A DNA stretch of 53,960 nt, the filler included, from Squatina squatina (taxonomy: Eukaryota), in assembly GCA_031763465.1 (NCBI GenBank). It is 3 parts of 3 records of this genome, joined end to end, with 100 filler letters (N's around TTAATTAATTAA, not from the genome) between each part and the next. Parts side by side here need not be neighbours in the genome. Positions count along the whole stretch, not along the records: positions 38,551 to 53,960 come from JARFOE010000019.1; 2 more parts are not named here. One strand, written 5' to 3'. Below the pieces are notes generated by a model, which saw only the letters and a program-made list of their open reading frames with translations, had not been told where the DNA came from and made no database searches. The translations under genes were made by a program, and so were the position numbers. Positions 15,878 to 53,960 of the stretch are shown in pieces (position 1 is the first letter of the stretch; each line of letters starts with the position of its first letter).

Positions 15878-16482
15878 CAGATTGGGAGACCGCTTTGCAG
15901 AACACCTCCGTTCAGTCCATAAGCATGACCCTGAGCTTCCAGTTGCCTGTCACTTTAATTCTCCGCTCCACTCCCACTCTGCTCCCCCCGTCCTCGGCCT
16001 CTTATACTGTTCCAACAAAGCTCAACGTATGTTCGAGGAACAGCACCTCATCTTTCGTTTAGGCACTTTACAGCCTTCTGAACTCAACATCAATTTCAGG
16101 CCATAACCCCTGCCCCTATTTTTTTTCTCTTTTTCTGTTTTTTTTTCTCTTTCCCACGGCAGCTGTTGATGATTCTGCCATTTCTATTTACACCCTATCT
16201 AGACTCATCTTTTGTTTCTGAACTTGTCCCATTACCATCTCCTTTGCCTCACACCATCATCCCTTTTGTCTCTTAATCTCTTCTGCCTTCCACCCTGTCA
16301 AGATCTACACTTTTGTTCTTCCCTCCCCTTCCCTCTTTCCCTGCCCCTGCACTTGCTTAAAAACCTGTCACATCTCTAACTTTTTCTAGTTCTGACGAAG
16401 GGTCATCGACCTGAAACGTAAACTGCTTCTCTTTCCACAGATGCTGCCTGACCTGAGTATTTCCAGCATTTTCTGTTTTTAC
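15878..16482 (+). mobile_element. Penelope-like retroelement 3' part (GIY-YIG C-terminus plus pLTR end)
   Basis: LGDRFAEHLRSV...PVACHFNS...EEQHLIFRLGTLQP..LNI, then a pyrimidine-rich tail and the terminal ctgacgaagggtcatcgacctgaaacg...gatgctgcctgacctgagtatttccagc. Confidence 0.88.
16388..16424 (+). ncRNA. Minimal type I hammerhead ribozyme in the Penelope 3' end
   Basis: agtt-CUGACGA-[agggucaucgaccu hairpin]-GAAAC-GUA-aacu. Both core boxes, stem I (agtt/aact), stem II and a loopless palindromic stem III (ACGU) are present. Activity is not shown. Confidence 0.7.
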
Positions 16483-22740: not shown

Positions 22741-23067
<327 letters not shown>

Positions 23068-30400: not shown

Positions 30401-32187
30401 ATTTCACACTGTGCTGATGTGAAATCTTTACAAATTTCCCATGAACTTTCATCACTTGTATTATAAATGGCATTCAAAAATAAATGTTTTACTAACCTGT
30501 ATTTCAATAGTTTTATTTTTCAAGAATATGCCTGTGTTAAGTGCAGCTAAACAACATCACTATTATTGCAGATTTAACAAGTAAGAGACATCTAGCAGCA
30601 TGGAGGAATTTTAAAGTTTCAATAAAATGTTTTTAATTATATTTTATTTCAGATCTTACAAAAAATTATATTCTGTTTCCAAACAAATCTTGATAATCAA
30701 CCTGGACTCAGCAAATGGTGGGGCAAGTATGTTATTGCGAATTCTAACTTCAGGCAAATTTTGTTTTTCATGCATAAAGCATATTACAGCTAAAATCCTT
30801 GTGAGGTTAGCATTGGCCATTACAGTGTTTTTCGATACTTAATAATAGATGTTTTAAAGTTTAAGTGCAGCCTAAGGCATTCATGAGCATTTATTACAAA
30901 TCGTTGGTTGCCCATCTTATGCAGAGAAGAATAACATTTACATACACTAGCCTACATTAATAACAGAAAGAAAAAAAGGCTGAAACTGCCGTCANNNNNN
31001 NNNNNAAGAGTAACCGGTGCTAATAAAGCTGACTATATTCTTCTGAAATATCAAGCCGTCTGTTCCAATATATTGTCTTCTCCCATGGGATCCACAAATC
31101 CAAATCTGATAACATTCTAGCAATGGCAGAGAGACGCTGCTCTGCTCTCCAGTTGCACTAAGCCGAATCTTTTATTCATCTTTCCCGCAACTGTACTTTC
31201 AGCTGTATCAAAACAAAAATGTTACTGCACGCACCCTTCATTGTAAATTTTGATACCAATAGTTTAAACTTCTACCTTTTCTCAATGGACTTTTATGTTT
31301 ATTTTTTTCCCTTGTTGCAAGAAAGGAAAATAAACACTAACTCAATGACATGATTGGCAAGCACTAATGCCACCATACTGGCTTTCTGCACATGCCCAGC
31401 AATGTGTTTCTGGTAGGCAATGACTAGCCATCACGACTGGAAATGGTCTATACTATTCAAAAGGGTTAAAAGCCACCAAAACAGCCAGTAGATAAAACAC
31501 ACTCTAACTGGTAATAAATAAAAATGTTTAAGAATAACACAAAAGAGGCCGAGTATAATAACTAATGATCGAGGTCAGATCTGTCTATCCTGCAGAATTA
31601 TTTTCAGTGTAAGTTTACTACTAGGCTAATATTTAGCTTATAAAGCAGGAAGCTGAAGGTGAGGCTGACTGTATATCTACATGTTTCTTACATTCCTTCA
31701 CTAAAGCTTGTTTGAATCAGCCATGCCAAGCAACATGCACATCAGAGGCTCGGTTTAAAAAAAGGACAGTCTCATTACTCTTCCTTGACTCTGACTATGC
31801 ACACAATAAAATAAATCCTGCCTGACCTCTCTAAGGAACATCCTTATTGTTCATTGACGATGAAGTGACTGCAGCTGCCTGGTAACCGCAAACAGCTTCA
31901 GTAAACGCATGGATACAGACTAGAAAATGAACAGTGCACGATGAATGGGGTTACTTTCGAAGTAATTATGATTCTCTAGTTTCTGTGCCTTCGATCTGAT
32001 GCTTTTTATTTGATTAAAACTACCCTTTATTGATGTTGCTACAGTGCAAACCCTTTTTGTGAAGCCTTTCAATTTGCCAACAGTCTCCTCCCAGAAAATA
32101 ACCATAAGCTCAGCAAAAACAGCTGCAAGGCTTCATTCCGATAAAAATGTGCTGTTCTTCATAGAAGTGGTTTTGTTCTGGACATTC

Positions 32188-32434
32188 ATGGCAGCTGCGT
32201 ATTGGAGGACGAGGGCCCCCAAATTTTCAGATGCTGTCCTACAGACTCTCGTTGGTGTGGTTGAGAGGAGGCCAGAGAGGCTGTTCTCGCCTGCAGGCAG
32301 AAGGGGCACTGCCAGAATGGTGAGGCGAATGTGGAAGGAGATTGCCATTGAGGTGTTGGCCTCAGGCCTGGCAGAGAGAGCGGTGTGAGGATCAGTGCTG
32401 CAAGAAATTTAATGACCTCACCCGCATAGTGAAG
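32188..32434 (+). mobile_element. Harbinger transposon Myb/SANT-like DNA-binding gene remnant
   Basis: RAPKFSDAVLQTLVGVVERRPERLF...RRMWKEIAIEV, then after a frameshift QCCKKFNDLTRIVK followed by a GT donor. This is the trihelix pattern of Harbinger ORF2/NAIF1-like proteins. Confidence 0.75.
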
Positions 32435-38550: not shown

Positions 38551-38654
38551 TTTAATTCTACGCTGGCAAAAGCAGACCTTATACCTACTTTTACCAGGCG
38601 TCAGAGAATTTCACGGGCATTCGCTGGGCAGAAGTTGAGCAAATAGATTCGATA

Positions 38655-38815
38655 ATAACTTTCAACAGGGAATTGGATTAATACTCGAAAAGGAGAAATT
38701 TGCAGGGCTAAGAGGAAAGAGTGGGGGAGCGGGACTAATTAGATAGTTCTTTCAAAGAGCCAGCACAGGCCCGATGGGCCGAATGGCCTCCTTCTGTGCT
38801 ATGCGATTCTATGAA
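38655..38815 (+). mobile_element. CR1-type LINE 3' end (different subfamily)
   Basis: gaattggat...ttgcagggcta...gatgggccgaatggcctccttctgtgct...ttctatga is a typical CR1 3' terminus. Confidence 0.65.
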
Positions 38816-39547
38816 ATAGCCCAACTCTCCGCCCACAGATGCCCTTTTCCCAGGAATGCTTTGGATCGGTCAAGAAAATTCCTGACGGATGGCAAGTTCT
38901 GGGTTTTCGCACGCATGCGCTTCGCCCCGTGACCTGCGAGGCCCTTACGGTCGCGTGCAGACCTCGTACACTCCCGTAAGGACCTGCAAAATATGGCCCA
39001 ATGTTAGTGAACCAACTAGCAAAGACTTATGTGTGGATAATTGCTTCACAGATGAGGGTGCAGAGCATTTTGACTGCGGTTTATCATTGAGTATTATTTC
39101 AGTATTGTACATAATGGATTTGTTCATAAGCTCCCTTAAATTGACAGCCATTGCTAAACTGGAGGCCATAGTCACTGCGGTCTAAAATTAAAAATGATTG
39201 TGTAAATGGGGAGTTTATGTATTTGAAAAGGAAGAAACTAATCCTTAATCCGCTTAATGTAGTACCCCTTAGGATAACAGATACATTCAGGATATTGGGT
39301 GTTTGCAATATAAAAAAGGATAATCTTTCTCTTTCCTGGGTTCAGAGAAACTTCTTTTTCAAACTCTGAGCCAGGCGTCTGGGGACACACGAGGTTCTGA
39401 TTTTGGGGTACTTGCTGCATCTAGGTTTGAACCCACCCCAAGTATTTCAGGTGACCGGAGTCTTTCACTACCCCTTTCTGGAAAGTTCCTGATGGGACGT
39501 TCCCTTCTTCTCCTCCCTTATGAGGAGAACTTATAAAGGAGGCACAT

Positions 39548-40022
39548 ATTTTTTATTCTTTCGTGGGATGTGGGCAACGCTGGCAAGGCCAGCATTTATT
39601 GCCCATCCCTAGTCGTCCTTGAGAAGGTGGTGGTGAGCTGCCTTCTTGAACAGCTGCAGTCCGTGTGGTGAAGGTGCCCCCACAGTGCTGTTCGGGAGCG
39701 AGTTCTAGAATTTTGATCCAGCGACAATGAATGAACGCTAATATACTTCCAAGTCAGGATGGTGTGCGACTTGGAGGGGAACCTGGAGGTGGTGGTGTTC
39801 CCTCGCCCCTGCTGCCCTTGACCTTCTAGGTGGTAGAGGTCATGCGTTTGGGAAGTGCTGCCGAAGAAGCCTTGGCAAGTTGCTGCAGTGCATCTTGTAG
39901 ATGGTGCACACTGCAGACACGGTGCGCCGGTGCTGCAGGGAGTGAATGTTTATGGTGGTGGAAGGGGTGCCGATTGAGTGGCTGCTTTGTCCTGGGTCGT
40001 GTCGAGCAGCTTGAGTGTTGTT
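39548..40022 (-). mobile_element. LINE 3' end (L2/CR1 group)
   Basis: Minus strand encodes the decayed ORF end HSLQHRRTVSAVCTIYKMHCSNLPRLLRQHFPN. The terminus attgcccatccctagt..ccttgagaaggtggtgg recurs at about 33900-33985. Confidence 0.7.
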
Positions 40023-40549
40023 NNNNNNNNNNNNNNNNNNNNNNNNNNNNNNNNNNNNNNNNNNNNNNNNNNNNNNNNNNNNNNNNNNNNNNNNNNNNNN
40101 NNNNNNNNNNNNNNNNNNNNNNTCCTGGAGATTTGTCTATCTTGAGTCCCGTTATTTTCGCCATTACCAGTTGTTTAAAACCTAGATTAAATCCACTAAG
40201 TACCACCCCTTGAGTTATTTGTCAGCTCCCTTGTACCCCTGACAAAGGCCTTTGCGCCCCAGCTGAATTCCCCGGGAGGCGAGATGGCTGCCTCCCGCCG
40301 CCATTTTGTCCTGTTTCGCCCCGCTAGCGCCCCTCGGAGGCACTAACGGGACGCAACAGGAGATGAAGTTCCAGCCCCTAGTATCAGCGCGAACTGTCCG
40401 TTACTGTTTTAACAGGCTCCAATCCAACATGCTCCAAGAGGTTTACTAATAACAGCAATATACATGTTGTCGTTAGTTTCTTCCTCTGTCTAATGCAAAA
40501 TAAAGACACAATAAATTGTACTTTTACTAGAAAACATGCAATTACTCAC

Positions 40550-40604
40550 AGGTCAAATATGAGGTAGTGAAACCCTTCTTCTGATATGCTGTCATGGAGA
40601 CGTA
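40550..40604 (-). CDS. CAMK2G: CaMKII kinase-domain exon 4 (55 bp); paralogue probably gamma
   Basis: Acceptor ctttctctttccag and donor gtgagt. Encodes (V)RLHDSISEEGFHYLIFD(L), diagnostic of CaMKII. The gamma assignment is inferred only from linkage to POLR3A (both on human 10q22). Confidence 0.8.
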
Positions 40605-40949
40605 CTGGAAAGAGAAAGTGGAACATTTAGATTCATCACGGGTTATAGATAACAACGTCTTGCGTCTAAGAATGTGTCCAACCTGCTTCAATTTGACAAA
40701 AATATTTTTAAAAAAGGAAAGAAAGCCAGTTATTTCTGGCTGGTTCTTCTGACCTTGATAATTAGAGCTCTCGCCAAGGAGAAAGGGTCTTACAGGCGAC
40801 TGCTAACCTACAGAAACATTCCCCGACAATTAGCTTCCAACTGATCTTTGAGTACTTCTTGAACAGGTCATCTTGAACACAGCTCCACCCTTAAAGCAGC
40901 CAAAGCTCAGACGACCCAACATCACTAAAACAAATAATCGGGTCAATGA

Positions 40950-41100
40950 CTCATTGTGGGAGCTTGCTGTGTGCAAATTCGCTGCCGCGTTTCCTACATT
41001 ACAACTTCACTTCAAGAAGTAACTAATTGACTGTAAAGTGCTTTGGGACATCCTGAGGTTCTGAAAGGCACTACAGAAATGCAAAAATCTTTTTTTTTTT
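40950..41100 (+). mobile_element. Deu-SINE 3' fragment
   Basis: tgtgggagcttgctgtgtgcaaatt..ctgccgcgtttcctacattacaac...gaaaggcactacagaaatgcaa matches the 3' half of 6592-6990. Confidence 0.75.
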
Positions 41101-41386
41101 TACCCGTGAGCAACATCNNNNNNNNNNNNNNNNNNNNNNNNNNNNNNNNNNNNNNNNNNNNNNNNNNNNNNNNNNNNNNNNNNNNNNNNNNNNNNNNNNN
41201 NNNNNNNNNNNNNNNNNAGTACCCCCATGAACGGTCCCATTGCACGAATTATTGGCACCAACCCCCCTCCCCTCCTTTTCTCGGTGTAAATTCCGTGCCG
41301 TTTGGGGGAGTCAATCCACCCGAGGCAAAGTCAGGTCGAGCAGCTCCTCACTAATAAATGGGCACCAGAGCACAGTGCGTCTTTCA

Positions 41387-41482
<96 letters not shown>

Positions 41483-42146
41483 TCAGGAATGCAATTTTTA
41501 AAAAAAATATATAAAACTGTGAATTGATGGATACATTAAAGCCACACTCGAGTAATCTACATCTAATGTTAACAGTGAAACTGGATGCTCCTGACATGTC
41601 CTGCAAATCGGCCGAATGGGAAAGATTTGCAGAAACAAAGCTGGAGTATCGGTTTTACTGCAACGTGCAAGCCAGTGGCAGGTCATAGTTCATAGTTCAT
41701 AGTTCTTCAGTTCAAAATCCTCCGAAAATTAATCTCGCCGTACTTGAGCTGGTTCAGAAGTATGCCGGGTACAGCAGTGCAGTGATTATGATAATGGAGT
41801 AGCAATCCAGAGGTCGTGATTTCAAATCCCGGATGTGAAATTGAATACAGTGAATCTGGTAAATTGGGCCGGCACCAGAAAAAAATGAGCTTGAACACTN
41901 NNNNNNNNNNNNNNNNNNNNNNNNNNNNNNNNNNNNNNNNNNNNNNNNNNNNNNNNNNNNNNNNNNNNNNNNNNNNNNNNNNNNNNNNNNNNNNNNNNNC
42001 ACACAGTGCTGAGCTCAAGCTCTGCAGTATAGCCTGTTGGAGCATTGGCCAACCAGGACATCGGGAAAACTACCTGCTCTTCTCTGAACCATGCCATTTC
42101 ATCATCAACGTCCAGTTGAATCACTGAACCAGGATCACAGTATAAC

Positions 42147-42215
42147 TAGGGTGACCAGATGTCCTGGTTTTGCTGGGATACGTCCTGGTTTGTCAGGACA
42201 CATCCCTGTGTCCCG
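42147..42215. mobile_element. hAT (Blackjack-like) DNA transposon terminus
   Basis: tagggtgaccagatgtcc followed by repeated gtcctggttt/ggaca subterminal motifs. No partner TIR found. Confidence 0.45.
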
Positions 42216-43771
42216 CCACTTTGCAACAGCTTATGAGGCTACTGTGAAACTAATATATTTTCTGAAATAAAAGTCATGATGTGTAATTAGCAACTATCCA
42301 CAACCATTAAAAATATGGATGCCTAACAAGAGGGAGTGAATAGATATGCAGATGGCACCCATGCTATTTACTATGCGGAAGGTTTCATTTCACAGTGAGT
42401 GGAATACTTGCTTTCAACTGGTTGTGTCTTGCACTGTTGTTCTGGATCATGAAGCGAGCATCTACTGCCTTCAACGGGATTCATTTGAAAACAGCTCAGC
42501 CTAATTTTAGGCCACAGGAATCTAAATCCATGTTGTTGCTAACAGGTGGATCTCAAAGATAAAAGGCATTCAGAGTCAGAATAACACCATTTTCCTGTTG
42601 CAAGATAATCATCACAGGTCTCGAATTCCATTACACTGTTTTTGCAGACTAGCTGTCACAACTGAGAATTATAGCACCAGGTTAATCAGGCATCTCCCAC
42701 ACACTCCTACACACCAAAGAGGTTTTTTTTAAAAATGGGTTCTGCACTTCATTTCTGTCAGGTGGTGACTGAAAGGTTACAAGTTGGAAACCATCCTTCA
42801 ACAATTCAAGGAGGTCTAAGGCAGAATCATGGACCCAAGAAATTCTACAAGCCAATTTAAGTTGAAGGCGAGCATTAATTGCAGTGGTGAAGCCACAGAT
42901 ATGAACATCTGATGTAGGGTTTAAATCAGACAAGAGACACTAAACAGTGAGGCACTACTCCAGGACAAGCTCGTGCAGAAAAAAAGTAGAGTTGCCTGGC
43001 TTCATGACTCACCAATAGCTCAAAATGATCAGTGTCCTATGCAGCAATACTGTGCTTGTAGCAGTTGTAAGTAGGTGCGGGTGAGGTGAAGCAATGAATA
43101 TGAGGTGTGAGTCGTGTTTGGTAGAGATTGTTGGTAGGTGAGCAATGGGGGTGCAGTGCATTGAGCATTGTTTGAGGCTCGAGATGCGGATGGTAGGATA
43201 TGGTGCATGCTTTTGCCCCTGCTGTGCCTTCACTAGTTCTTTTCCCGAGTCTTCATCAGCCAGTTAAATGAGCTGCTTCAGGCAGAAAGCTCCTCCCCTT
43301 TAAGAGGTGCAGACTGCTTATAAGAAGTGCAGGCTAGCTTTAAGTGGTGCTGGCCTCACATGAAAATGGGCCCCCTGCTAAGCATTCAGTGCTGGGCTGA
43401 ACACCACAATCATGGAAGTGAGCAGGCAGCACAAAGTTTGTGATGCCCATTTTTGGGGGCAAACAAATTTCTAGGCCAAACTGAATACATACATTGTTGT
43501 ATATTATTATATTCTTCAGTTGACCTTCAAGCTTTTTTTAGCAGGAGATTTGCTAATGCTGTCATTCTGCTGATTGATATCAAATTGACCCAGATTTTCC
43601 ATTTGGTCATTACATTGTTGGAGTGTGACAGGGTGGGGGGTTTTACCCGCTAAAAGGATACACCCCTGAACNNNNNNNNNNNNNNNNNNNNNNNNNNNNN
43701 NNNNNNNNNNNNNNNNNNNNNNNNNNNNNNNNNNNNNNNNNNNNNNNNNNNNNNNNNNNNNNNNNNNNNNN

Positions 43772-43846
43772 GTACTTCATTGGCTGTAAAGAGCTTGGGA
43801 TGTCCGGAGGTCATGAAAGGCGCTACAGAAATGCAAGTCTTTCTTT
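43772..43846 (+). mobile_element. Deu-SINE/L2-type 3' tail
   Basis: tacttcattggctgtaaa...gaaaggcgctacagaaatgcaagtctttcttt. An inverted copy of the same tail lies at about 50433-50467. Confidence 0.7.
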
Positions 43847-44169
43847 ACAATCCTAACCTTTTGAAATGCAGGAATATATTCAAGCTAATTAGCAATGGCT
43901 TAAAACATCGGATTTTCAATTTAGCTCAACTAAGATAAGGGCCTTGGCTAAGGCACTAATCCATCCATCCCCCTTACCAGATGCTGACTGACCTGCTGTG
44001 TATTCCCTCCATTTATCTTTTTTTGTTTCTAATATAGTCCATAGCTACCGTGAAACCCCGAAGAAACAGTCAATGAATAAATGGGGTCCCAGCGTGGGTG
44101 TGGAGCCACGGATCAGAGAATCCCCAGCATTCCCGACTTTTCCGTGATTCATTAAGACCAGCAGGTTTT

Positions 44170-44409
44170 ATTCCAACCCTCCAGGATTGCCCTGGTGTCT
44201 CCAGGAATTCAAGATTAATCTCCTCAATGCTGCAGCGAGCAACCAGAAAGAAAAATCAGAGGGGCTTTAAGAAAAATTCTTTTTTTTTCATTTCCTTTAT
44301 TAGTTATAAAAAAATATTGGAGCGGAGAGAGAAAAATGAGTGTCTGGCCGGGCTGGGTGGTCATGTAACGAAGCCTACAGGAATATCTCCAACCAGAGTT
44401 GGTAACCCT
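44170..44409. mobile_element. hAT-like non-autonomous element
   Basis: Left end ccaaccctccagga and right end gagttggtaaccct resemble (T)AGGGTTGCCAAC termini, with internal ctccagga-type repeats. Confidence 0.45.
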
Positions 44410-45779
44410 GCTGCTGATCTGTGGTGACCTCAGGAAGTCCGGCCCACCAGCCAAGTGGTCTATTCATGGGCCCCAGGCCACTCTTGCGCCCCCAGAGAGG
44501 AAAGAGAGGTTTGATATCATCAGGAAACATGAAAACGTTCAATAAAAAAATTCTCACATTGCTTTGGTGCGTGGCAAAAAAATGACTTGCTTTCCCAGGC
44601 CGACAACACTTTACTTTCACAATGGAGGAAGGAGCAATGTCAATGAAGGTTTGGTTGTATAATCATCAGCCGATAACACCCGAGTGTTAATTCGTATTCA
44701 GGCGCCTATCAATTAAACTGACAGTGATGAGCACAGAATCTAATCCTTTCTAATTACAGACTTCACTTTTTACATAATCACTGTGCTTACATTCTGCAGG
44801 ATAAATAAATACTCAAAAATGCATACACTAATATAGGCTTTTTAAATGTTAAAAATTGGAAATCAGTATTTTCTTCACAAGACATTTTTCTATGCAGTTT
44901 GTGTCTTGTAGGTTCAACTGGTGACTACTGCAGTCACAAAAAACTTTGCACAGTGCATTCTACGTTCCAATCAATGTCTTATCCAATCATAATAAGTGAT
45001 CCAAAGCTTAATTATACAACAATGCCCATCTCCACCGAGTCCAGCTACAAGGTACATCATTTTGTGTCAAGGTTACAGACTGACCCTGGGGTCTAATTGG
45101 CTCCGAAATTATACCTGGTGATGTGTGTTCGGAACCGAGTCAATCTTCTGTGGCAGCCTCAGCGATCTGATACTTTGGCTACAGGGTACAGTTGATGATT
45201 GAAATTCAACCTGCCTCATGAATGGAAGCGAACCAGTCAATGGAGGATCCAAATAACCGTGGAAGCCACTGTCCGAAGGGCTTGGCTGGCACAATCTGGA
45301 NNNNNNNNNNNNNNNNNNNNNNNNNNNNNNNNNNNNNNNNNNNNNNNNNNNNNNNNNNNNNNNNNNNNNNNNNNNNNNNNNNNNNNNNNNNNNNNNNNNN
45401 AAAGAGTCTCTTCCATAGAGTCATAGTACTGATTCCCCACACCCTCAAACATAAATACCATGGGATGAGGGAGTGAACATTTTTAGCACAAACACAGCTT
45501 GGAACATACAACCCTCCGCAGTTAAGGTTGACCAGAACACCTTCATACAAATTATAAATTTATATTCAGTGCTGTTTCTCCAGCATTACTGTCCCTGCAG
45601 CCCGTGTTTTCGAACACTACAAATCAAATTCCCCGAAAAGAGCTGGACCGCTCTCTGCAGTTAGGTTTCTGAGCAGACAAGCTTGTAGAGAGGGGCTTTT
45701 TTTTTAAATAAAAAGTTCAATAATCCATCTTCCTCACACAAGTCCAAGGGTTGAGATGTGGCCAATTCAGCCTGTGGAA

Positions 45780-46020
45780 TAATTCGATCCTCTCCACCTC
45801 TCAAACACCATTGTTTCCGAAGACCCCACAGGCGCTCTCTGCTGTAGTCATGAGGAACGCCATAGCAACCGTGAGTAGTCGCGCACCGGGTTACAGAGCG
45901 GGGGTAGGAGGCGGCCCCTGGAGCAGGTCACCTTCCCACGCTCTCAGTCAGGAATGATGCACGGCACTAGTGGGAGGTGGGAAAAGCTACAGAAAAGGAG
46001 GGGGGGCGGGGAAATTGTAA
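45780..46020. promoter_or_regulatory. GC/CpG-richer promoter-like patch upstream of the CaMKII exons
   Basis: Several CpGs in unique-looking DNA, an RFX half-site ccatagcaac (45860-45869) and a GC box ggggcgggg (about 46003-46011). Position suits the CaMKII 5' end, but exon 1 is not visible. Confidence 0.4.
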
Positions 46021-46439
46021 CCAACAAAACGGAGGGGAAAAATTAAAACCTGTGAGCAAAATGTTTGAAGTAATACCCAAGCAAATTACAACACTGCATT
46101 CTTTCTTTGAGAAAATTCCCTAGTGACAGAATATAAAACATCAATATTTACTGGCATCAGCTTTCAGCCTCCATCGTCAGGTTTTGNNNNNNNNNNNNNN
46201 NNNNNNNNNNNNNNNNNNNNNNNNNNNNNNNNNNNNNNNNNNNNNNNNNNNNNNNNNNNNNNNNNNNNNNNNNNNNNNNNNNNNNNAGGATTACAAAAGT
46301 ACTCACTTGGCACAATGTTAGCCAAAGTCAGTCAAGGCCCATTTGCTCCACAAGAAATACATCATCCTGAGGTAAAAAAAGTAGTGTACTTTATTGCTTT
46401 AGGTGAATTATCTATAAACTACATTACTGCAGCAAAATA

Positions 46440-47270
46440 GAGCCAGGAAACTACAGGCCCATCAGCCTGACATCCATCATTGGGAAGATGCCTGAAGGAA
46501 TCCTAAGAACTGCCCTTTATGATCACTGGGAAAGAGAAAGGGTCATTAGAAATACATAACATGGCTTACGGAAAAATAGGTCATACCGTACAAACTTCAT
46601 TGAGTTTATTGAGGAAGTCACTAGGGTAGTGGATGATGGAATTCCAGTAGACATTATCTACTTGGACTTTCAGAAAGCCTTTGATAATAGACCTAGGAAA
46701 TCTGTCGTATCAGTAGGAATTTGATCTGCTGAATTGGCTGCATTCTTCTAGCCAAAAAGTTGTAGTTAACGGATGTGGTTCAGCCAGGAGACTTGTTGTT
46801 TGTAGTGCCCTCTAGGGATTGGTCCTGGGCCCACGACTGTTCACTTTCTTTATTAATGACCTGGACAGTGGTGTTGGGAGTACAGTAAGTAAGTTTGCAG
46901 ATGGCACCAAAATCTGTGCAAGGGTTAAGATGGTAGAGGAGTGCACTCAAATCTAAAAAGATTTAGCTGTGCTAGGGGAGTGGGCAGCCCAATTCATCAT
47001 ACACGTATCATTGCTTAGAACAATACTCAGAGGTTGATAGAGAAAAATAACTTGGTGTTATTGTGCTCAGATCACTGAAGGTTCATGACCAATGCAGAGA
47101 AACTGTAGCTAAAGCAAACAAGATATTGGGTTGCATCAATAGAACCATTCAATATAAATCAAAGGACACCATTTTGGCACGATACAGGTCATTGGTCAGT
47201 CTGCATCTGGAATACTGTGCTCAGTTTTGGTCCCCCCACAGAAGTGACATAGTGATCTTGGAAAAGGTCC
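46440..47270 (+). mobile_element. Decayed CR1 reverse transcriptase fragment with internal deletions
   Basis: PGNYRPISLTSIIGK...HGLRKNRS..TNFIEF.EEVT..VDDG.PVDIIYLDFQKAFD, GLVLGP.LF..INDLD...SKFADGTKI and HLEYCAQFWSP motifs, broken by stops. Confidence 0.88.
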
Positions 47271-48647
47271 ACCCGAGAGGTCCTGGTTCGGGTGAAGGGT
47301 TCATTGAACAAACTTAAACGATTGCCAATACTTGGGCGTAGTGCAATTGTGGGCATAATTCACTTACGCCTAAAATTACTCGATCTTTTGTGCTATTTGA
47401 CTTGGTTCCACCCGGATTAAGCTGTTATCTGGGCAGAAATAACAGCTTAATCCGGGCTGTTCTTTCTGCCGGATAACAGCTGAACCTCCAGGCCCAAGTA
47501 AAGCAAGTCAAGATAATTCTGGCCACAATGGCTTGGGACAGATAATGGGGCGGGAACAGCTTAAGGACATGCAGATGGTGCAGTGTTCCGACAGTCGGGC
47601 ATGGATATGGATAAAGTGCCAAGCTGCAAAAATAAAACAGAAGACACAGTAAGTTCTTCTCCGTTATAAACTGGACGCACCTGCCTTTGTGTCGCATATC
47701 ATTGTATCTGAAAAAGCTCCGCACTCTTACTCCTGCTGTGCAGATTTCTGACTCAATATTTCCATTTCACAACCTGAAACTTAGGTTTCTATTTCTAACA
47801 AAAAGAGCTAGAAAATAGTTATCCAATTCCACCCACACACCTACAATAATTGGATAGAAATTGGTTTGTGAAGAATAAAGGCAAAGAGTTTAATGACTAA
47901 TTTCNNNNNNNNNNNNNNNNNNNNNNNNNNNNNNNNNNNNNNNNNNNNNNNNNNNNNNNNNNNNNNNNNNNNNNNNNNNNNNNNNNNNNNNNNNNNNNNN
48001 NNNNNNNNNNNNNNNNNNNNNNNNNNNNNNNNNNNNNNNNNNNNNNNNNNNNNNNNNNNNNNNNNNNNNNNNNNNNNNNNNNNNNNNNNNNNNNNNNNNN
48101 NNNNNNNNNNNNNNNNNNNNNNNNNNNNNNNNNNNNNNNNNNNNNNNNNNNNNNNNNNNNNNNNNNNNNNNNNNNNNNNNNNNNNNNNNNNNNNNNNNNN
48201 NNNNNNNNNNNNNNNNNNNNNNNNNNNNNNNNNNNNNNNNNNNNNNNNNNNNNNNNNNNNNNNNNNNNNNNNNNNNNNNNNNNNNNNNNNNNNNNNNNNN
48301 NNNNNNNNNNNNNNNNNNNNNNNNNNNNNNNNNNNNNNNNNNNNNNNNNNNNNNNNNNNNNNNNNNNNNNNNNNNNNNNNNNNNNNNNNNNNNNNNNNNN
48401 NNNNNNNNNNNNNNNNNNNNNNNNNNNNNNNNNNNNNNNNNNNNNNNNNNNNNNNNNNNNNNNNNNNNNNNNNNNNNNNNNNNNNNNNNNNNNNNNNNNN
48501 NNNNNNNNNNNNNNAGATCGTAATAGACGGTATCTATTTAATATATGCTTCTTAAGGGATAAGGTTCTCACAGCAGTCAAAGGGTTAGCAAAAAATTTCT
48601 CTTTGAATTTGCAGCACAACATATTCTTGGATGGTTTTGTTTGGGAG

Positions 48648-48677
48648 AGGAGGAGGAGGAGGAGGAGGAGGAGGAGG
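48648..48677. repeat. (AGG)10 microsatellite
   Basis: Read directly from the sequence. It explains the poly-R run in ORF 48603..48785. Confidence 0.9.
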
Positions 48678-49421
48678 TGGGCAGCCTGCCTGCAATTGCC
48701 AAGACAGGGTACGAAAGAATCTGTTAATGACTTGCTCCATCATAGATCTGAATTATTCTTGGAAGTCTGCGTTGTATTTCTTTAAACAATCTCGATTATT
48801 TTTTTCTTGAAGTATTATAAGGGTGTTAGGCAGCACGCTAATCTTCTACATATTCTATCGACAAATGATAATCATTATTCTACAAATATCTTTTAATTGC
48901 TCTGCTTAGAATTCTCTCCCTCACCCCAAATTTTCTTCCCACCTCTCCTGTAGGTGGCAGTTTATGTTGGGTTGCGTAATAACTTGAGAACCTTGGCTGC
49001 TGAACCCAATTGTCTGTTCTTTATGTACGAGGCTTTTTGAAAAGGGGGAAGCATCATAACTGAGCCCAATCCTGGCTTAACGTAGGAATTCCTAGATGTG
49101 AAAAGACCAAAGCTCATCTGGTTCGCCTTCTACCACCCTGATAGTTGCACAACATAACGATAATGTAGTTGTTGACTAATCACAACAATCAATCTCTGTC
49201 AATGAGTCTACAACAGACCCAGGCATGACACGAGGAAAACCCCAGAGGTGGAGAGTTTTGGGACACAGCGGTCCAACATCAACTTCTTCCTCCCAAGTAC
49301 GATGCACTCACCACACGTCNNNNNNNNNNNNNNNNNNNNNNNNNNNNNNNNNNNNNNNNNNNNNNNNNNNNNNNNNNNNNNNNNNNNNNNNNNNNNNNNN
49401 NNNNNNNNNNNNNNNNNNNGA

Positions 49422-50252
49422 ATGAAACTATTGTCCTCCACCCTTTCACTTTACATATGGACTTTGGCCATCTTGAAGGCGTCATTAGCTGCTAAGATAA
49501 TGATAATCCCGCCCATCATGTTTGAGAGTCATTTGCTCATATTTAAAACACTGGCGAAGGCATTACACGGGCAGGGGCATGAGGTTGTCATCGTAACGTC
49601 AAGGGGCCGAGTGATCGAGGAATCCCCTCACTACAGGTTTCAGCAATATCCTGGTATGTTCTCCACCCAAACTGCAGACGACTTCCTGCAGGAGAAAATG
49701 AAGAACATCTTCTCCGGGAAGTTGACTTCGCTGGAACTCTTTGGCATTTTGGACAGTTACACCGCCAACTGCAACCAGATGGTGGGCAATCGCGACTTAG
49801 AAGAGCGGCTGAGGGAAGAAAACTTTGATCTGTTGCTGGTTGACCCCAATGAAATGTGTGGTTTTGTATATGCTGAAATCCTGGGCGTAAAACACGTTAC
49901 ATTCTCCACCGGGCTGTGGTTCCCGGCAGAGCTCGGTGCTCCTTCACCGGTTTCTTATGTTCCAGAATTTAACTCCCTGATGACCGATCGGATGAACCTC
50001 TTGGAGCGTGCTTGGAACAGTTTGATTTACGCCGTCAGCAGAATAGGCACCAGATATGCCATCCTTCCGAAGTATGATGCCATCATGAGGAAGCACAATG
50101 TGAAGCCCTCCAGATCCATGATGGAGATAGTCCAGGGCTCCTGCATGTTTCTGCTCTGCACTGATGTAGCTCTGGAGTTTCCCAGACCGAGTCTACCGGC
50201 CATTGTTTTTGTGGGAGGAATCCTCACGAGGCGTGCAAACCCATTGCCGGAG
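49422..50252 (+). CDS. UGT8: UGT8-like 2-hydroxyacylsphingosine 1-beta-galactosyltransferase, first coding exon (277 codons)
   Basis: ATG at 49422 with a signal-peptide-like start, then AAKIMIIPPIMFESHL...FDLLLVDPNEMCGF...FSTGLWFPAELGAP...YVPEFNSLMTDRMNL...CTDVALEFPRP...GGILT...PLPE and donor gtaagt. Collinear with the first coding exon of human UGT8. May be a paralogue rather than the orthologue. Confidence 0.92.
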
Positions 50253-50596
50253 GTAAGTTATACGATTCCGCCTTTAACCAAAGATTGACAATAGAAACTG
50301 TTTCGCACAAATATCCAAACCCTTAAAGTAAGAAAGAGAAATGGAAACATACCTCGTATATCTAAGTTTTCAGATGACGCTTAATTAGAGGGTGGTTTCA
50401 ATGATTGGGATGGGGTAAACCAAATACAAGTCTGAAAGAAAGACTTGCATTTCTGTAGCGCCTTTCACGGCCAGCAGACNNNNNNNNNNNNNNNNNNNNN
50501 NNNNNNNNNNNNNNNNNNNNNNNNNNNNNNNNNNNNNNNNNNNNNNNNNNNNNNNNNNNNNNNNNNNNNNNNNNNNNNNTATATTGATGAACATAT

Positions 50597-50826
50597 GAAT
50601 GACTCAGCCTCCACAGCTCTCTGGGGTAAAGAATTCCAAAGATTCACAACCCTCAGAAGAAATTCCTCCTCATTTCGCTCTTAAATGGGTGACCCCTTAT
50701 TCTGAGACTGTGCCCCCGAGTTCTAGATTCCCCGAGGGGAAACATCCTCACAGCATCTACCCTGTCAAGCCCCCTCAGAATCTTATATGTTTCAATAAGA
50801 TCACCTCAATCTTCTAAACTCCAATG
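50597..50826 (-). mobile_element. CR1 fragment in UGT8-like intron
   Basis: Reverse complement is nearly collinear with about 4860-5085. Confidence 0.85.
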
Positions 50827-51066
50827 AATAGCTCGTGGGGTCGGGTGCGCACGCATCTTCTGGGGCCACGTGTGCGCTGCTTCTGGTGTGCATGGTCAAC
50901 AAGATTGCTTTGGAAGCAGGGACAGTGACTGTGGGTGTGATTCAAACTCTGGTACAGGCAGTATCCACTGAGCTAGACAAGGGAGGAGAGTCAAACCAAG
51001 CTTTTCTCTCAATCGGGTATTTTATTACAATGCTCATTTTACTAACTTGGAGTTTACTTGTTTTAG

Positions 51067-51286
51067 GTCACCCAAATGTGAAGACATTTTTGAGCCATGG
51101 GGGCTTGAATGGCATCTACGAATCCATCTACCATGGCGTGCCAGTGGTAGGGATTCCACTTTTCGGAGACCATTATGACATCATGACGAGAATCCATGCT
51201 AAAGGAATGGGGATTTTTCTATCCTGGCACACAATGACTAAAGAGGATATTTATCGAGCCATTGTTACAGTGGCCACAGATCCAAG
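51067..51286 (+). CDS. UGT8: UGT8-like exon carrying the UDP-glycosyltransferase signature (220 bp)
   Basis: Acceptor cttgttttag and donor gtaaga. Encodes (G)HPNVKTFLSHGGLNGIYESIYHGVPVVGIPLFGDHYDIMTRIHAKGMGIFLSWHTMTKEDIYRAIVTVATDP(R). The two preceding exons probably lie in gap 50480-50579. Confidence 0.92.
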
Positions 51287-51663
51287 GTAAGAATCAAATA
51301 TCAGAATAGTACAGCACAGGAGGTCATTCGGCCCATCGAGTCTTTTGAAGAGCAATCCAGTTAGTCCCACTTCCCCACTCTTTCCCCACCTAGGCTTCAC
51401 GACCACCACGTTTTGCACTCATTTTGTCGTGAACAATCTCCTGTATCTGTTTTTTTGTTACTGGCTCACGCTGAGCAACAACCTCTGTTGTGGCTACTTT
51501 CTCAATAAGCTAATGAAAAGCTTGAACAGATCTTACAGAACCAACTGAAATCATTTCATTGAATTAATATAGGATTACAATATTTGTATTGTAGCTCAAG
51601 TTGTTACAAGAATATGCTCAGAGTACAAAATGTTGACAGAAATGAATTTTCTCTGATCACCAG

Positions 51664-51815
51664 GTACAAGAAGCAGGCGATGTACTTATCCAAACTGCAT
51701 CAGGACCAGCCTCTTCACCCAGTGGACCGCACGGTCTACTGGCTCAACTATGTTCTCCGTCACGATGGAGCGACACATCTACGCCCTACCCTGTACGACC
51801 TGTCCTTCCATCAGT
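51664..51815 (+). CDS. UGT8: UGT8-like last coding exon, 5' part (cut by gap)
   Basis: Acceptor ctgatcaccag, then (R)YKKQAMYLSKLHQDQPLHPVDRTVYWLNYVLRHDGATHLRPTLYDLSFHQ, the typical pre-transmembrane UGT segment. Runs into Ns at 51816. Confidence 0.9.
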
Positions 51816-51915
51816 NNNNNNNNNNNNNNNNNNNNNNNNNNNNNNNNNNNNNNNNNNNNNNNNNNNNNNNNNNNNNNNNNNNNNNNNNNNNNNNNNNNNN
51901 NNNNNNNNNNNNNNN

Positions 51916-51970
51916 AATAGTCCTGTTCCTATGTTCATTGGGATTCCCATGATAATGCACTCTGACACAC
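51916..51970 (-). CDS. POLR3A: POLR3A last exon, 5' part (cut by gap)
   Basis: Acceptor cttctaaag, then (G)VSECIIMGIPMNIGTGL, the conserved region H end of RPC1. A 155-bp intron separates it from the preceding exon. Confidence 0.92.
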
Positions 51971-52054
51971 CTTTAGAAGCAAAGGGAAGAGCCAGTGAGT
52001 GGGATGGAAGCTGTTAGGAGCACAGAGAACAAAGACTAATGAACAGTACACTTA

Positions 52055-52288
<234 letters not shown>

Positions 52289-52551
52289 TTAAGTGGCATG
52301 CAACTTAATCCTTGTTCGACATGCAGAGATGAATGCTAAAAATCCCAAATGTGGAAACTAAACATCTCTTGGAATTGTTTTGGAAATGGCTACAAATCAG
52401 TTTGGAGGGGGGGGGGGGGGTGGCGGGAGAGGAGAGGAGAGGAGAGTGGATNNNNNNNNNNNNNNNNNNNNNNNNNNNNNNNNNNNNNNNNNNNNNNNNN
52501 NNNNNNNNNNNNNNNNNNNNNNNNNNNNNNNNNNNNNNNNNNNNNNNNNNN

Positions 52552-53058
52552 CAGAAGGCTGTAAAGTACCTAATCGAAAGATGAAGTGCTGTTCCTCGAG
52601 CTTGCGATGGAACAGTGTAAGAGGCCAAGGACAGAAAGACCAGAGTAGGAATGAAGGGGAGAATTAAAGTGACAAGCGACCGGAAGCTCGGGGTCACGCT
52701 TACGGACTGAACGAAGGTGTTTTGAAAAGCAGTCACTCAATCTGCGTTTGGTCTCCCCAATGTAGAGGAGACCACATCGTGAGCAGTGAATACAGTATTC
52801 TAAATTGAAAGTAGTACAAGTAAATCGCTATCTCACCTGGAAGGAGTGTTTGGGGCCCTGGACAGTGGGAAGGGAGGACGTAAAAGAGCAGGTGTTGCAT
52901 CTCTTGCTTGCTTGCGCAGAAAGGTGTTGTGGGAAGGGGAGGGGGTGATGGAGGTGTGGACTAGGGTGTCGTGGAGGGAGTGGTCCCATCAGAATGCAGA
53001 AAGGGAAGGGGAGGGACATATGTGTTTGGTAGTGGGATCATGCTGGAGGTGGCGGAAA
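52552..53058 (-). mobile_element. Penelope-like element GIY-YIG fragment in POLR3A intron
   Basis: Minus strand KRCNTCSFTSSLPTVQGPKHSFQVR*RFTCTTFNLEYCIHCSRCGLLYIGETKRRL shows the Cys motif and the YIG of the endonuclease. Same family as 15878-16482. Confidence 0.88.
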
Positions 53059-53292
53059 CGTTATCTGCCTATTGCATCCCAAGGCAGAGGTAGCTGAAGC
53101 CTAACCTACCAAGTGTCCACCTAGTCATAGGCAACACACTTTGCCTTTGTTGCTCTGGGGGCAGCCAAAGGACATCTATCAAACATCTATCATCTATCTG
53201 GATTCAATCCAGACCACTTGGTCTGTGGCCGGGTGGACTAAAGAAATTGTTCTTCAGTGAATCATCTTGTTCTGGGAGCTACGGATTCTAAC

Positions 53293-53424
53293 CTTGTACG
53301 TCATCAGGTCTGACAAAAGCATGACATGTCTTCTGTCAATGCTCATCCCATGATTTTTCATTGTATACTGGATCTCGTGGATGATGGTGGATCGAGCACC
53401 TTCGATCCCCAATGTCTTCTCCAC
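53293..53424 (-). CDS. POLR3A: POLR3A third-last exon (132 bp)
   Basis: Acceptor ttgtccacag and donor gttaga. Encodes [44 protein letters not shown], in phase with the next exon. Confidence 0.95.
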
Positions 53425-53960
53425 CTGTGGACAATTTCAAAACACAAACTTAAAGTGTCAACATTTCTAGTCTAATTTTCAAAAGATTTTCAAGCAAGCA
53501 CGGAAGGCTAAGTTGAAGGTAATTGTGGAGCTTATTCAGCTACCCTCACATTTGAAGGAGGCTCCTGTGGGTGAGTGGCATCAATAATTAAATTCAGGAT
53601 GCAATGCAAAAAAATCTCATACACGCCCACACACACTTTATCATACGCACATACCACCGTGAACTATAGAGAGAATCCGAGGCATTCTTCCTGCTTATCT
53701 ACAAGAAAAATTCTCTATGTTACACACAAGATCACAAATTAGGGAAGATCACTTGATTTATCTTAGTTTATACATGCAGAGAAACAACCCTATTACATCA
53801 TCTAACTGAGCTCTGAATAAGGCTTTCACCTCCGCTACTCTACCAGGAAAACCATTCCAAGTACTGATCGCTCCACAAGAATTTCTTGCTGACATCTGCC
53901 ATAAATTTACCTTTTAATGGTTCTAACCATTATGGCTTTGGATGAAGGACAGGTGGTTCC

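Follow-up and report, generated by a model that had tools for sequence, protein, structure and literature searches.

UGT8, the ceramide galactosyltransferase that produces the myelin lipid galactosylceramide, has been treated as a one-gene family on account of the single mammalian gene. The window analyzed here (i.e., the whole stretch of 53,960 nucleotides of Squatina squatina DNA, a pack of three stretches) carries a UGT8-family gene in its third stretch (positions 38551 to 53960), and the question is whether this gene is a second UGT8, what its product does, and how it arose. Our analyses indicate a second UGT8 clade (UGT8L), likely derived from whole-genome duplication, whose shark enzyme likely still galactosylates ceramide-type lipids in the endoplasmic reticulum (ER). 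The gene itself is already annotated; new here are the clade evidence, the link to NOLC1, and the DH-to-DQ shift in lobe-fins. The degree of surprise is moderate, since automatic annotations already include the gene and since mammals have commonly lost ohnologues that other lineages retain.

Two UGT8 loci and two clades

The third stretch matches positions 4111488 to 4126897 of scaffold C19 of the S. squatina assembly with 0 mismatches. As originally predicted, it contains a UGT8-family gene on the plus strand, and the three exons found (Table 1) each match the Pfam UDPGT family (E values for exons 1, 4, and 5 of 1.6e-27, 3.9e-23, and 1.8e-19, respectively). Membership in the UGT8 family is indicated by identities of about 60 to 65% to UGT8 proteins, versus 28 to 40% (over exon 1) to other UGTs in the assembly. 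Exon 1 encodes a signal-peptide-like N terminus and the acceptor-binding domain with the FESH histidine; both FESH and the signature ending in FGDH are found in the gene, and the intron positions and phases around exon 4 match those of the canonical copy on scaffold C1, in agreement with the proposed UGT8-type phases. The description of the exons as three intact ones holds only in part: they are UGT8-family exons without stops, but they represent the first, fourth, and fifth of five coding exons, exon 5 is broken by a 100-N gap at 51816, and exons 2 and 3 are absent from the scaffold.

The window copy shares with canonical UGT8 (i.e., UGT8A1, ceramide galactosyltransferase, or CGT) the UDPGT domain, FESH, the signature His358, the terminal DH, and the intron positions and phases around exon 4, and a KKxx-type tail is found in its shark UGT8L relatives. 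It differs from canonical UGT8 in being only about 60% identical, in belonging to a separate clade, in lying on another scaffold, in its faster rate, and in lacking the N78 sequon.

Table 1. Features of the UGT8L locus (positions along the window unless a scaffold is named)
Feature	Position	Strand	Remarks
CaMKII hub exon, same gene as the kinase-domain exon	C19:4075408-4075638		Outside the window
CaMKII kinase-domain exon	41398-41457	-	60 nt; likely CAMK2G
UGT8L (UGT8 paralogue B) coding exon 1	49422-50252	+	831 nt, 277 codons; GT donor, phase 0
100-N scaffold gap	50480-50579		Likely site of missing UGT8L coding exons 2-3
UGT8L coding exon 4	51067-51286	+	220 nt, AG/GT; UDP-sugar signature, His358 equivalent, terminal DH
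UGT8L intron	51287-51663	+	377 nt, GT..AG; absent from contigs of 4/4 relatives' runs
UGT8L coding exon 5, 5' part	51664-51815	+	Truncated by gap ahead of transmembrane helix and KKxx-type tail
POLR3A, three 3' coding exons	53293-53424, 52126-52258, 51916-51970	-	Last exon cut by gap

UGT8L exon 1 has 13 matches in the assembly, and only those on C19 (100%) and C1 (61%) exceed 40% identity; the genome thus has two UGT8 loci, not one. The C1 copy, with 94% identity to catshark UGT8 and 75 to 78% identity to the UGT8 of mammals and coelacanth, is therefore the canonical gene. Several other UGT frames of the assembly (L005 on C339045, L008 on C23656, L009 on C358136, L006 on C46, and C52:211883-212464) are intronless at the UGT8 intron positions and may be UGT5-like; L005 and L009 each contain an internal TGA, and L003 contains a TAA. 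UGT5 is given as teleost-only in the available text of PMC6209164.

Exon 1 of the window copy is 78 to 92% identical to nine proteins, eight of which are named from cartilaginous fish, and 59 to 65% identical to the other 111 matches listed (120 of 205 matches). The annotated cartilaginous-fish UGT8-like proteins (e.g., XP_067828581.1 of Heptranchias, XP_038638988.1 of Scyliorhinus, and XP_007896395.1 of Callorhinchus) are direct orthologues of the window gene, with those same identities over exon 1; they are automatic annotations and show no difference of kind. The suggestion that the gene may already be annotated as UGT8-like is therefore borne out, the database entries being named UGT8-like. 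The focus on cartilaginous fish proved too narrow, however, because the copy, under the symbol UGT8L, is also retained in birds, turtles, crocodilians, and lizards and, among lobe-finned fish, in coelacanth and lungfish. A search with the coelacanth "like" protein (120 of 257 matches listed) yielded proteins from lungfish, birds, turtles, crocodilians, and lizards, and cluster listings place the second copy in sharks, rays, a chimaera, chicken, and many other birds and reptiles. In 13 of the 13 compared species with both copies, the two are 50.5 to 61.0% identical. No amphibian or ray-finned fish is named among the 108 proteins of the second clade drawn from the matches listed (120 of 257 and 120 of 205). 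The predicted absence of the second copy from humans agrees with the single mammalian UGT8 member reported in PMC11795506. A literature search that covered few subscription journals turned up no study of how a second UGT8 copy arose or of its activity. A search of the ESM Atlas returned generic UGT clusters only, and the PDB matches listed (60 of 75) were UGT2B C-terminal domains and distant GT1 enzymes, with no UGT8 structure among them.

The proposed phylogenetic check gave two jawed-vertebrate clades, canonical UGT8 (clade A) and UGT8L (clade B), each with an SH-aLRT value of 99 in a quick tree of 65 rows. In a careful tree of 28 rows rooted on two hagfish proteins (partial, redundant, and long-branch rows excluded), clade B received support of 100/99 and clade A 94/95. 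The window protein falls inside shark B, adjoining a sawshark protein on a short branch (0.05), and is not nested among the canonical orthologues; nor does it lie at the CAMK2D-arylsulfatase-NDST locus, whereas the C1 copy belongs to clade A and lies at that locus. A shark-only duplication (i.e., all cartilaginous-fish copies as one clade) was rejected by the AU test (p = 3.6e-13), as was the grouping of shark B with clade A (p = 8.3e-4). In a careful tree of 36 rows rooted on amphioxus (branch length, 4.7), B was not one clade, shark B and lobe-fin B forming separate branches of an open fork; we attribute this to the long amphioxus branch, and it remains a caveat. From these protein trees, we infer that UGT8L split from canonical UGT8 before the shark/bony-fish divergence.

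In the 65-row quick tree, amphioxus matches fall outside A plus B, and hagfish UGT8 is placed relative to A and B with support of 30 and 55. Since this placement is weak, the gene tree does not settle between the first and the second duplication round. Chicken chromosomes 4 and 6 are presumably a first-round pair. That pairing was not found in the available text of PMC7269912, which places both whole-genome duplication rounds before the shark/bony-fish split. Two Logan proteins, P0181 and P0279, form a deep UGT8-related pair (44 to 47% identity) that branches near hagfish. The signature of P0181 ends in DQ, as does that of amphioxus P0190, which may place the origin of DH close to the base of the vertebrates. 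Another Logan protein, P0256 (314 aa), is a long-branch member of clade B within the sauropsid group.

Predicted activity of the UGT8L enzyme

By homology, UGT8L is predicted to be a GT-B enzyme of the ER lumen, held in the membrane as a type I protein: besides a signal peptide, it would have an acceptor domain at the N terminus, a domain for the UDP-sugar, and a single membrane anchor. Its N-terminal histidine, which is the catalytic base in other UGTs, would activate the acceptor hydroxyl. By analogy with human UGT8, the shark enzyme may make galactosylceramide or related galactolipids, and the residues kept at its donor site point to transfer of UDP-galactose onto a ceramide-like lipid as the likely reaction. 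Equivalents of His358, Asp382, and His383 are present in the window copy and in 28 of the 28 scorable shark-type B proteins (31 in the set). His358 is required for mouse UGT8 activity, and the DH motif occurs in UGT8 but not in other mammalian UGTs (PMC11795506).

Among proteins of at least 280 residues that matched one of eight reference proteins at 62% identity or more and were classified accordingly, and in sets that are redundant, DH occurs in 158/158 scorable A proteins (177 in the set) and in 28/28 shark-type B proteins, while HCG..DQ occurs in 74/74 scorable lobe-fin/sauropsid B proteins (77 in the set). The latter also carry E32D, T244H/N, and F380Y. The lobe-fin/sauropsid copies thus have FDSH and HCG..YGDQ (e.g., P0052, P0122, P0123-P0139, and P0435) where the shark copy has FESH and HGG..FGDH, although both belong to the same clade (100/99) and have the same NOLC1 gene upstream in read-through gene models. 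The DQ state probably represents one event. The change from HGG..FGDH to HCG..YGDQ is a possible sugar-donor shift, and the clean split between DH (shark) and DQ (lobe-fin) offers a ready test of sugar-donor choice.

An alternative with the same origin is that clade B changed early and uses another acceptor (e.g., diacylglycerol, bile alcohols, or sterols) or another sugar donor, the lobe-fin/sauropsid copies having gone further to accept UDP-glucose or similar. Several features are in its favor. Clade B evolves faster than clade A (Heptranchias-Callorhinchus identity, 78.5% for B versus 92.6% for A), its identity being the lower one in 8/8 species pairs. Shark B also departs from A at 20 columns that are fixed in A; the N-terminal acceptor domain accounts for 12 of these, the loss of the N78 sequon included. 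The uniform HCG..DQ, E32D, T244H/N, and F380Y states of the lobe-fin/sauropsid proteins point the same way, as do the appearance of UGT8L in non-neural transcriptomes (see below) and a review stating that a His-to-Gln change allowed human UGT8 to use UDP-glucose as well (PMC10932239). However, the shark copy retains every donor-site residue checked, the A/B differences are mostly conservative, and several B-type residues are shared by hagfish, so that some of them are ancestral states. Moreover, mouse UGT8 with H383Q retained galactosyltransferase activity (PMC11795506), which makes DH a weak predictor of the donor. On balance, we consider a change of function across the clade unlikely and prefer a conserved ceramide galactosyltransferase activity for the shark enzyme. 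Since UGT8L evolves faster than UGT8 and has fixed differences in the acceptor domain, it likely serves different tissues or acceptors, and canonical UGT8 likely stays the main myelin enzyme.

The original prediction also connected the second copy with myelin, a link for which we found no support. In the available text of the sources, mentions of UGT8L are limited to gene lists from chicken liver (PMC12355073) and chicken granulosa cells (PMC7900633), quail uterus (bioRxiv 10.1101/2021.09.15.460419), and a cardiovascular study of the snapping turtle (PMC8420019). Judging from cluster names, the symbol UGT8L in the chicken and snapping-turtle lists denotes clade B. A term search of the available text of PMC12008523, on the evolution of myelin-lipid enzymes, found no mention of UGT8, and that of PMC6209164 lists UGT8 only as a family. 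Hagfish have a DH-type UGT8. These animals, to our knowledge, are without compact myelin, and the UGT8 family is thus older than myelin.

A bolder reading, which we put forward tentatively and rate as improbable when its parts are taken together, is that UGT8L has gone unnoticed as a second lipid glycosyltransferase of vertebrates. The shark enzyme would supply galactolipid and sulfatide outside myelin, for example in salt-secreting epithelia such as the rectal gland, which, like bird salt glands, is reported to be sulfatide rich; the lobe-fin ancestor would have switched or widened the donor via the fixed DH-to-DQ change with G359C, F380Y, and E32D. If this is true, birds and reptiles have an ER-lumen glycolipid activity missing in mammals, and shark and chicken UGT8L are a natural pair for the galactose/glucose choice in animal UGTs. 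UGT8L is a second candidate enzyme to consider in galactolipid work on chicken, quail, and catshark.

Genomic neighborhood and mode of duplication

Scaffold C19 carries ELOVL (2.75 Mb), PITX (3.61 Mb), a ZSWIM4-8-type exon, NDST (minus strand), CaMKII (minus), UGT8L (plus), and POLR3A (minus), while C1 carries ELOVL and PITX (7.73 to 7.77 Mb), CaMKII (minus), arylsulfatase (minus), UGT8 (plus), and NDST (plus). The CaMKII gene is of the beta/gamma type on C19 and of the delta type on C1. Both orders rest on gapped scaffolds. Five gene families (i.e., CaMKII, NDST, PITX, ELOVL, and UGT8) are paired between the two scaffolds and span 0.9 to 1.4 Mb of scaffold; the synteny comparison thus finds C19 paralogous to the canonical C1 locus through five more or less adjacent pairs, as a whole-genome duplication would leave them. 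The isoform names used (CAMK2G, NDST2, PITX2/3, ELOVL3/6, ARSJ, and ZSWIM8) are in part our assumption. A chondroitin N-acetylgalactosaminyltransferase exon lies about 120 kb upstream of UGT8L (L055:10-261; C19:4000010-4000261). A third CaMKII hub exon, which we take to be alpha-like, is on an unplaced contig (L038; C443784).

UGT8L had been described as flanked by CaMKII and POLR3A, both on the minus strand. Exons of both genes are indeed on the third stretch (the POLR3A exon at 52126 to 52258 matches a PDB RPC1 chain at 40/40 residues), but every link between them crosses N gaps, and NOLC1 is the direct upstream neighbor in catshark, pigeon, and turtle gene models. The gap at 51816 to 51915 is bordered by coding sequence at both ends, UGT8-like at one and that of POLR3A at the other, so that the adjacency of these two genes rests on scaffolding. 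In the gene models mentioned (P0448 of catshark, P0339 of pigeon, and P0389 of green turtle), NOLC1, recognized by its SRP40_C domain, is fused upstream of the B gene. The fusion is probably annotation read-through, a real read-through transcript being possible. These models make NOLC1 the conserved direct neighbor of the B gene and, without recourse to the present assembly, connect shark B with sauropsid UGT8L. Searches of the window and of stretches of C19 did not reveal NOLC1; its exon matches are on unplaced contigs, and the gaps that separate CaMKII from the B gene may hold it. The idea that UGT8L kept a divergent CaMKII/UGT8 pair is not supported, since an arylsulfatase gene lies between CaMKII and UGT8 on C1 and NOLC1 is the conserved neighbor of UGT8L.

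The C19 and C1 blocks presumably correspond to the human 10q and 4q25-26 blocks. To this extent, the human counterpart region proposed for UGT8L (i.e., 10q22, with CAMK2G and POLR3A) agrees with our assignment; its exact site is less certain. Quail UGT8L lies on chromosome 6 near PITX3, PSD, and CUEDC2 (bioRxiv 10.1101/2021.09.15.460419), so that the site of mammalian loss may not be the CAMK2G-POLR3A interval. Canonical UGT8 is reported to adjoin NDST4 in vertebrates (PMC4359090).

Could clade B stem from an old segmental or single-gene duplication, with the CaMKII-UGT8L-POLR3A order a product of scaffolding? The gaps across all C19 links, the placement of NOLC1 off C19 despite its position in the models of three other species, and the different near neighbors in quail would fit such an origin. 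We consider it very unlikely, given the five families paired between C1 and C19 and the PITX3 gene near quail UGT8L, a PITX gene being also on C19. The view of UGT8L as a whole-genome-duplication sister of UGT8 accordingly stands with respect to the age of the clades, which precede the shark/bony-fish split, and to the paralogous neighbors, with the qualification that all order links in this assembly cross gaps; an ohnologue pair from vertebrate whole-genome duplication is, in our judgment, highly probable.

Missing exons and other sequences in the window

Gaps of 100 N interrupt the assembly at intervals of one to two kilobases, and the canonical copy on C1 is likewise interrupted. The exons in the window span residues 1 to 277, about 348 to 422, and 423 to 473 of the 531-residue shark relatives; residues 278 to 347 (exons 2 and 3) are missing from C19, and the region of the C-terminal transmembrane helix and dilysine-type ER tail falls in a gap, shark orthologues having lysine-rich tails. 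An unplaced 1.3-kb contig (C423311) carries an AG acceptor and the 5' part of an exon 3 that resembles shark B proteins, not canonical UGT8. Since the start of a B-type exon 3 sits on this unplaced contig, the missing parts look like assembly loss. Exon 2, the remainder of exon 3, and the C terminus of the Squatina copy were not found in a search of the assembly; an exon-2 match on C330837 was rejected because it belongs to the canonical copy (92% identity to catshark UGT8).

The search for sequencing runs listed 16 runs (shares of 0.05 to 0.06), none of them an RNA run of S. squatina. Contigs of four of these, from four studies, were compared with the window; they come from relatives about 91% identical to the window and are only guessed to be RNA. 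In 4/4 runs, exon 1 lies inside one spliced contig (1574 to 2038 nt) that joins exon 1, 212 to 218 additional letters, exon 4, and exon 5; in relatives, exons 2 and 3 together measure about 220 nt. The exons meet at splice joints, and all UGT8L pieces are in one frame in these transcript contigs. The joint of exons 4 and 5 of canonical UGT8 is present in 3/4 runs. Of the window-versus-relative differences, 30 of the 38 scored are at third codon positions (40 of 188 difference rows were shown, and two were dropped because they lie inside an indel offset).

The window copy is very probably a functional gene. That it is a decaying fragment or pseudogene without exons 2 and 3 and the membrane anchor is hardly credible: these parts are off the scaffold, and exon 2 and the C terminus did not turn up elsewhere in the assembly, but an N gap lies at the site of every missing part, gaps interrupt the canonical copy likewise, a B-type exon 3 piece with its AG acceptor exists, the exons present have no stops, and the branch is short. 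A lesion in the unfound exons is possible.

Elsewhere in the window, degenerate frames at 52573 to 52827 (minus), 15879 to 16103 (plus), and 46400 to 47320 have what we take, by eye, to be a likeness to retrotransposon fragments; two of the three were scanned against Pfam and gave no match. In the second stretch, positions 32014 to 32385 (plus) have a weak Myb/SANT-like match below the Pfam cutoff, perhaps a transposon remnant. The first stretch contains a CTLH-domain exon at 22741 to 23067 (minus; Pfam E value, 2.1e-9), presumably GID8-like, which is unrelated to UGT8L.
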